This document shows, one piece after another, positions 36,272 to 36,745 of a stretch of 64,000 nt of DNA. Below the pieces are notes generated by a model. That model made no database searches. It was not told the DNA's origin and saw only the letters and a list, made by a program, of their open reading frames with translations. The translations under genes and the position numbers were made by a program. The stretch's first letter is position 1, and every line of letters begins with the position of its first letter. The DNA is taken from the NCBI GenBank assembly GCA_000002445.1, contig CP000069.1, positions 1,536,001 through 1,600,000 of the forward strand. Reading direction: 5' to 3'. The stretch is from Trypanosoma brucei (Eukaryota).

Positions 36272-36745
36272 ATAATATTAGTATGCGTACACTTACAAAA
36301 CGCTTCTATTATTATTATTATTATTATTATTATTATTATTATTATTATTATTATTATTATTATTATTATTATTATTATTATTATTATTATTATTATTATT
36401 ATTATTATTATTATTATTATTATTATTATTATTATTATTATTATTATTATTATTATTATTATTATTATTATTATTATTATTATTATTATTATTATTATTA
36501 TTATTATTATTATTATTATTATTATTATTATTATTATTATTATTATTATTATTATTATTATTATTATTATTATTATTATTATTATTATTATTATTATTAT
36601 TATTATTATTATTATTATTATTATTATTATTATTATTATTATTATTATTATTATTATTATTATTATTATTATTATTATTATTATTATTATTATTATTATT
36701 ATTATTATTATTATTATTATTATTACTACTATTACTAATACAGTC
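36272..36745 (-). repeat. 70-bp repeat core fused to a ~417-bp pure (TTA)n tract of about 139 units
   Basis: 'cataatattagtatgcgtacacttacaaaacgcttctattattatt...' continues as uninterrupted 'tta' triplets from 36308 to 36724 and ends 'tattactactattactaata'. Confidence 0.9.

Follow-up and report, generated by a model that had tools for sequence, protein, structure and literature searches.

Why one 70-bp repeat in a silent VSG array of Trypanosoma brucei carries 419 bp of uninterrupted TAA triplets, and whether such a tract makes the VSG that follows it an unusually frequent donor in switching, are the questions raised by this locus. They were addressed with the whole 64-kb stretch of DNA in which the tract lies (hereafter, the window). 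Direct reading and an exact period-3 scan gave a pure period-3 run at 36307-36725 (419 bp, 139 complete units, zero interruptions), which is (TTA)139 on the + strand and (TAA)139 on the gene strand (- strand); the original prediction of ~139 uninterrupted TTA units at 36308-36724 was thus confirmed. Tandem Repeats Finder reported the array at 36307-36734, with 142.7 copies and 99% matches. Two further pure runs, of 86 bp and 149 bp, were found by the scan and also by Tandem Repeats Finder in a block at 63 kb (63048-63133 and 63198-63346); they contain 28 and 49 complete units, so that the numbers given for them beforehand (~29 and ~48) were off by no more than a unit. Elsewhere in the 64 kb, the pure TTA-class runs of at least 12 bp detected by the same scan were just 15-16 bp each. 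For a perfect repeat of 419 bp, chance origin is of no concern. The features are listed below, together with the basis of each assignment.

33033-34346, - strand: b-type VSG pseudogene, the next gene downstream of the 36.3-kb repeat (Pfam VSG_B, E=3e-50; three-frame translation)
36262-36309, - strand: moderately degenerate 70-bp-repeat core, gene strand ATAGAAGCGTTTTGTAAGTGTACGCATACTAATATTATGATGGAG (37/48 identical to the copy at 63003-63050)
36307-36725, - strand: pure (TAA)139 tract, the expanded triplet part of the 70-bp repeat (reading, Tandem Repeats Finder, period-3 scan)
36726-36745, - strand: short imperfect triplet flank, 5' of the pure tract in gene sense, gene strand ...GTATTAGTAATAGTAGTAATAA... 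(aligns with the flank of the short tract in T. equiperdum)
37241-38560, - strand: b-type VSG pseudogene upstream of the tract (Pfam VSG_B, E=5e-41; translation)
58443-59975, - strand: intact VSG, ~3 kb downstream of the 63-kb repeat block (Pfam VSG_B and Trypan_glycop_C; exact sequence of XP_845638.1 / Q583L3 of TREU927)
63003-63050, - strand: consensus-quality 70-bp-repeat core, the proximal copy of the two-repeat block (48/48)
63048-63133, - strand: pure (TAA)28 tract, 86 bp (reading, period-3 scan)
63137-63184, - strand: second 70-bp-repeat core of the 63-kb block (44/48 identical to the first)
63198-63346, - strand: pure (TAA)49 tract, 149 bp, with a few interrupted triplets before it at 63185-63197 (reading, period-3 scan)

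Ten long ORFs on the - strand matched VSG_B, Trypan_glycop, or Trypan_glycop_C of Pfam, and the residue-for-residue match of the VSG at 58443-59975 identifies the source as T. brucei brucei TREU927. The window is a silent VSG array of this genome, in which the genes all run in one direction, on the - strand. The conserved 16-mer of the VSG 3'UTR (TGATATATTTTAACAC) was found 14 times, always on the - strand, versus 1.3 occurrences expected; with up to 3 mismatches allowed, it was found neither after the pseudogene at 37241-38560 nor near the 63-kb block. The VSG at 33033-34346, which had been described as immediately downstream of the tract, is indeed the next gene, 1.9 kb away (the core at 36262-36309 sits 1,916 bp upstream of its ATG), but it is a pseudogene: by three-frame translation, the N-terminal domain is intact and the C-terminal domain contains an in-frame stop and a frameshift. 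On the other side of the tract, the gene at 37241-38560 has a premature stop (439 aa versus 500-503 aa in its closest relatives, which are T. brucei VSGs with 74-80% identity, including VSG-721). Over the whole window, the base counts of the + strand are 22,992 T and 14,859 A, which fits the location of all VSG cassettes on the - strand. The array is interrupted at ~9080-14640 by a degenerate non-LTR retrotransposon on the opposite strand (+), with frameshifted ORFs that matched Exo_endo_phos_2 (E=1e-13), RVT_1 (E=2e-42), and, weakly, RNase_H; the element may be ingi-like, a name that is ours and not the output of a tool.

With BLAST using the best core copy as query, and with inspection of each site, 16 cores of the 70-bp repeat were found in the window, all in gene orientation. 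Core identity was scored against a 48-nt reference, for which that best window copy (63003-63050) was used. The array cores match 29-44 of the 48 reference positions, except for a 17-nt remnant at 50268-50312, and the core beside the 139-unit tract (77% identity) falls within the range of the others. The core pattern, a GT-rich segment and then an AT-rich segment (GGAGAGTGTTGTGAGTGTGT...ATACGAATATTATAATA), is present at 36262-36309, 63003-63050, and 63137-63184; a search for this pattern with up to 3 mismatches gave 2 matches versus 0 expected. The 70-bp-repeat context proposed for the tracts was therefore verified by the cores themselves (37/48 at 36.3 kb; 48/48 and 44/48 in the 63-kb block). 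On the gene strand, the triplet (TRR/TAA) stretch lies directly 5' of the core, and the tract abuts the core as ...TAATAG/AAGCG... and ...TAATAG/GAGAG... (the slash marks the border). Note that the order proposed originally, a core and then the tract, is valid on the + strand only; in gene sense the TAA tract precedes the core, as the genes are on the - strand.

The usual cassette of the array reads, in gene sense, as VSG, 3'UTR 16-mer, a spacer of ~200 bp, a triplet (TAA/TGA) stretch, the GT-rich core with the AT-rich segment, an interval, and the next VSG. The interval between core and VSG is 1.3-1.9 kb in most of the cassettes measured and ~3 kb at the 63-kb block; counted to the start of the next VSG ORF, which has the same orientation, the distance is 3,028 bp at this block and 1,916 bp at the 36.3-kb repeat. 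The 419-bp tract takes exactly the triplet position of the repeat with the core at 36262-36309, and other cores have short TAA/TGA stretches at the same position as the expanded tracts. All the testable defining features of the T. brucei 70-bp repeat are present in the tract and its core. At the 13 other cores, there are at most 5 pure units, and the neighbouring triplet stretches that were measured are up to ~30 bp long and interrupted. The pure-unit series in the window is accordingly at most 5, then 28, 49, and 139, with three of the 16 repeats expanded; the 139-unit tract is a clear outlier within the window and the end of a graded series, so that the description of the tract as an extreme expansion holds for the 16 cores of this window. 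Two other boundaries (27360-27520 and 24219-24340) each have two adjacent 70-bp cores with short interrupted tracts; doublets are thus not peculiar to the expanded 63-kb block.

The window was compared with two loci of T. equiperdum, one from the OVI assembly (GCA_001457755.2; locus L002) and one from the IVM-t1 assembly (GCA_003543875.1; locus L001). By BLAST, L002 is collinear with the window from 51418 to 34173 (86-92% identity), and the tract is the point at which two BLAST segments adjoin (L002 6567-11785 corresponds to window 41956-36718, and L002 11769-13919 corresponds to window 36323-34173). The tract breakpoints were assigned from the BLAST coordinates and direct reading; MAFFT misplaced the gap on the 3' side and aligned the upstream flank well. 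At the tract site, L002 contains GTAATAAAAATAATGATAGAAG and then the same degenerate core, that is, ~6 interrupted triplets versus 139 pure units in TREU927. The flanks of L002 align right up to the tract, the contig has no N gaps at that site, and the synteny continues through the 36.3-kb site without rearrangement. L001 is collinear with the window from 63108 to 50310 (about 88% identity), and it ceases to be syntenic with the window at the 63-kb repeat block, where it has only ~60 bp of interrupted TAA. When L001 5930-6020 was compared with window 63000-63060, the whole GT-rich core was missing in L001; the loss apparently occurred by deletion between the AATAGGAG direct repeats, two in number, found on either side of the core in TREU927 (junction, ...AATAATAGGAG joined to TTAGGATGAAG). 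Pure runs longer than 24 bp were found in neither of the two T. equiperdum loci. Judged from these alignments, this cassette boundary also occurs with a short interrupted triplet stretch, the tract being the sole difference, with the qualification that the T. equiperdum loci may be paralogous or divergent haplotypes and not strict orthologues, given the identity of 86-92%. One of the two assemblies may, we presume, be a short-read assembly that could not hold a long tract; assembly collapse would not give the interrupted sequence seen in T. equiperdum. Thus, the ~6 interrupted triplets beside the same core in the collinear L002 point to a lineage- or allele-specific expansion of a normal TRR stretch.

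Long pure TAA tracts at VSG 70/76-bp repeats are not new. From their titles, as given in citing papers, Campbell et al. (1984) described '(TAA)90' with 76-bp repeats on its flanks, and Aline et al. (1985, NAR 13:3161) '(TAA)n ... flanking several intrachromosomal VSG genes'; furthermore, the AT-rich / (TAA)n region between the conserved units varies in length (Hovel-Miner et al. 2016, PMC4858185, citing Aline 1985). As far as these titles go, such tracts have been known since 1984-85, and the present tract is of the same kind and longer than 90 units: the earlier ones are likewise long pure TAA at 70/76-bp cores upstream of T. brucei VSGs, array genes included, with variable n. The difference from the tract of Campbell et al. 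(1984), again by its title, lies in the number of units (90 versus 139) and in the setting, which here is a single degenerate core between two pseudogenes of TREU927. What characterizes these tracts, tens to ~100 uninterrupted TAA units at VSG 70/76-bp cores, was found here with 139, 49, and 28 units. The canonical 70-bp repeat (Hovel-Miner et al. 2016) has the same GT-rich core, AT-rich 3' part, triplet region, VSG orientation, and position 1.3-3 kb upstream; it is present in 1-3 copies upstream of ~90% of archive VSGs and has been proposed as the source of upstream homology in duplicative gene conversion (Hovel-Miner et al. 2016). In the canonical unit of ~76 bp, however, the triplet part is ~20-30 bp of mixed TAA/TGA, whereas here it is 419 bp and pure, which gives a 'repeat unit' of ~470 bp.

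The physical properties of the tract were calculated from its sequence. By nearest-neighbour calculation, no other 400 bp of the window forms a less stable duplex than the tract (-0.82 kcal/mol per step versus a mean of -1.32, sd 0.11, or ~4.5 SD), which ranks first among all 400-bp segments. The strongly DNA-unwinding character claimed for it is supported to the extent that its calculated duplex stability is exceptionally low. The claim that it is also prone to form hairpins or triplexes was not supported. The minimum free energy (MFE) of 150 nt was 0 kcal/mol for either strand, and 200 of 200 shuffled sequences folded at least as well (z = +2.9 and +3.5). A homopurine-homopyrimidine mirror repeat is absent, each strand being mixed (TAA, Y-R-R; TTA, Y-Y-R), and classical H-DNA is therefore not expected. 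Both the hairpin and the triplex readings were rejected on the folding of both strands and the sequence composition.

For cloned TTA.TAA repeats, an unpaired 'non-H-bonded' structure has been reported (Ohshima 1996, as cited in PMC6237402 and PMC5422504), and the introduction of another paper (PMC3000339) lists hairpin and triplex among AAT/ATT structures, citing a paper on 'unusual sequence requirements'. The motif studied by Ohshima, Kang, Larson and Wells (1996, JBC 271:16784) is, according to the citing papers, identical to ours, and the calculated duplex stability of the tract, the lowest in the window, agrees with that structure; their repeats were cloned and under superhelical stress in E. 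coli plasmids, whereas the present tract is silent, subtelomeric, and known from sequence alone. Disease-type repeats (CAG/CTG, CGG/CCG, GAA/TTC) offer another comparison. As in these, the pure run is well above the length of self-reinforcing slippage instability, and interruptions are present in the short allele and absent from the expanded allele. Unlike these, the tract has no hairpin or H-DNA potential, is non-coding and untranscribed, and has no known phenotype.

From these results, we think it probable that the tract represents an ordinary TRR/TAA triplet segment, belonging to a 70-bp repeat at a silent subtelomeric VSG cassette boundary, which has undergone a lineage- or allele-specific microsatellite expansion as a neutral by-product. 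The process would have started from a handful of interrupted triplets and ended at ~139 pure TAA units. Once a pure run had arisen, replication slippage would have lengthened the tract, possibly together with unequal sister-chromatid exchange, and no selection against lengthening would be expected in DNA that lies between two pseudogenes, does not code, and is essentially untranscribed. The same process would account, on a smaller scale, for the tracts at 63.0-63.3 kb. The absence of any impurity over 419 bp argues for a recent expansion, and the graded series (at most 5, 28, 49, and 139 units) is as expected for slippage; the survey of tract lengths covered the 64-kb window and ~34 kb of related sequence (~100 kb of array in all). 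Neutral slippage is thus indicated by the purity, the graded lengths, the short interrupted homologue beside the same degenerate core, and the silent, non-coding, pseudogene-flanked site. Judging from this context, the expansion was most likely neutral. We regard the tract as an AT element predicted to melt easily and not to form hairpins, a by-product and not a device, which would not make the downstream pseudogene a preferred donor.

Two other origins of the tract were weighed against this neutral expansion. Sequencing and assembly are difficult for long pure AT microsatellites, and neither T. equiperdum assembly has long tracts; the tract might thus be an assembly or sequencing artefact, either absent from the genome or of substantially wrong length, collapsed or inflated by slippage of the polymerase or the assembler. 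We consider this unlikely. Three separate expanded tracts of different lengths are present, in correct register with genuine cores, and 419 bp fits within a single Sanger read, Sanger sequencing being, as we assume, the technology of the TREU927 genome (published, we believe, in 2005). Furthermore, a cloned (TAA)90 was, to judge from the title of the report, sequenced independently in 1984, so that tracts of such order exist in T. brucei. Complete fabrication is made unlikely by the register of the three tracts, the single-read length, and this earlier (TAA)90 together. It is quite possible that the tract length is off by some units, with which the interpretation would be unchanged; the caution given beforehand, that the assembly may have collapsed here, is a reasonable one. 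Alternatively, the tract might be the relic of a telomeric expression-site or minichromosomal repeat, which arose while exposed to the transcription and early replication of an expression site and was afterwards transferred to the array by recombination. The VSG gene with the classical (TAA)90 tract in its upstream barren region was reportedly investigated for transposition to an expression site. Such a tie to a transposing VSG, suggested by the title, would favour this origin, as would the two consensus-quality cores of the 63-kb block, which resemble expression-site repeats. At 36.3 kb, however, the core is single, with no array of cores, and is degenerate and common to T. equiperdum, where it has a short tract; from this, the repeat is old and resident, and only the tract changed. 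The comparison with L002 accordingly suggests a resident array locus with an in-situ change of length, and we regard the relic as very improbable.

The original prediction held that the cassette is an unusually fragile or recombinogenic donor, that is, that fragility or unwinding of the long tract is functional, raises recombination, and causes the VSG downstream to serve as donor unusually often. Several observations are in keeping with this. The tract is, by calculation, the most easily melted 400 bp of the window; a physical instability of (TAA)n in 70-bp repeats, with stalled replication and resulting double-strand breaks (DSBs), has been proposed (PMC3467770, PMC6237402); and the end of the IVM-t1 synteny at the 63-kb block fits 70-bp repeats as rearrangement boundaries. 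However, these models of instability apply to the expression site, which is transcribed, and assign to silent repeats the role of upstream homology (PMC4858185, PMC3467770, PMC5422504). The evidence on whether 70-bp repeats initiate switching is contradictory (PMC5422504), BLISS did not reveal breaks clearly in 70-bp repeats, not even in those of the active BES1 (PMC10691351), and mosaic donors need no 70-bp repeats at all (PMC13233330). By the standard logic of DSB repair, the broken locus receives information, and a broken silent cassette would therefore be a recipient or a deletion site, not a donor. Furthermore, the synteny with L002 runs straight across the 36.3-kb site, the core is degenerate (77% identical to the best copy of the window), and no hairpin is predicted. 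Pure TAA offers little extended homology to expression-site repeats, in which the TRR part is presumably short and mixed. The supposed donor at 33033-34346 is itself a pseudogene. With the lesion placed by the models in the active expression site, a broken silent cassette expected to be a recipient, and pseudogenes as the flanking VSGs, the donor claim is not upheld, and we find this reading improbable.

A modified form is that long pure TAA tracts at silent array repeats act as length-dependent sites of replication stalls or breaks, by which their cassettes would become preferential recipients of conversion, deletion, or duplication; they would then drive the rapid turnover of the VSG archive ('hyperevolution') and not the choice of donor in switching. 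To this we also assign little likelihood. If it were true, the 28-139-unit tracts of TREU927, versus the short ones of T. equiperdum, would mark currently unstable cassettes; if breakage is length-dependent, the window would provide a natural series (~5, 28, 49, and 139 units) with which to ask whether the triplet part causes DNA lesions. Under the preferred reading of a neutral expansion, the main practical value of the locus is a warning against trusting the annotated tract length, which may be wrong, and against the spurious ORFs to which the tract gives rise. Two such ORFs are created on the + strand, at 36071-36763 and 36163-36738 (230 and 191 aa), and could be mis-annotated by automated gene callers. 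A coding role of the tract was rejected, as these ORFs are homopolymer artefacts that the repeat produces; judged from the codons TTA, TAT, and ATT, the stretch encoded by the repeat would consist of a single residue throughout.
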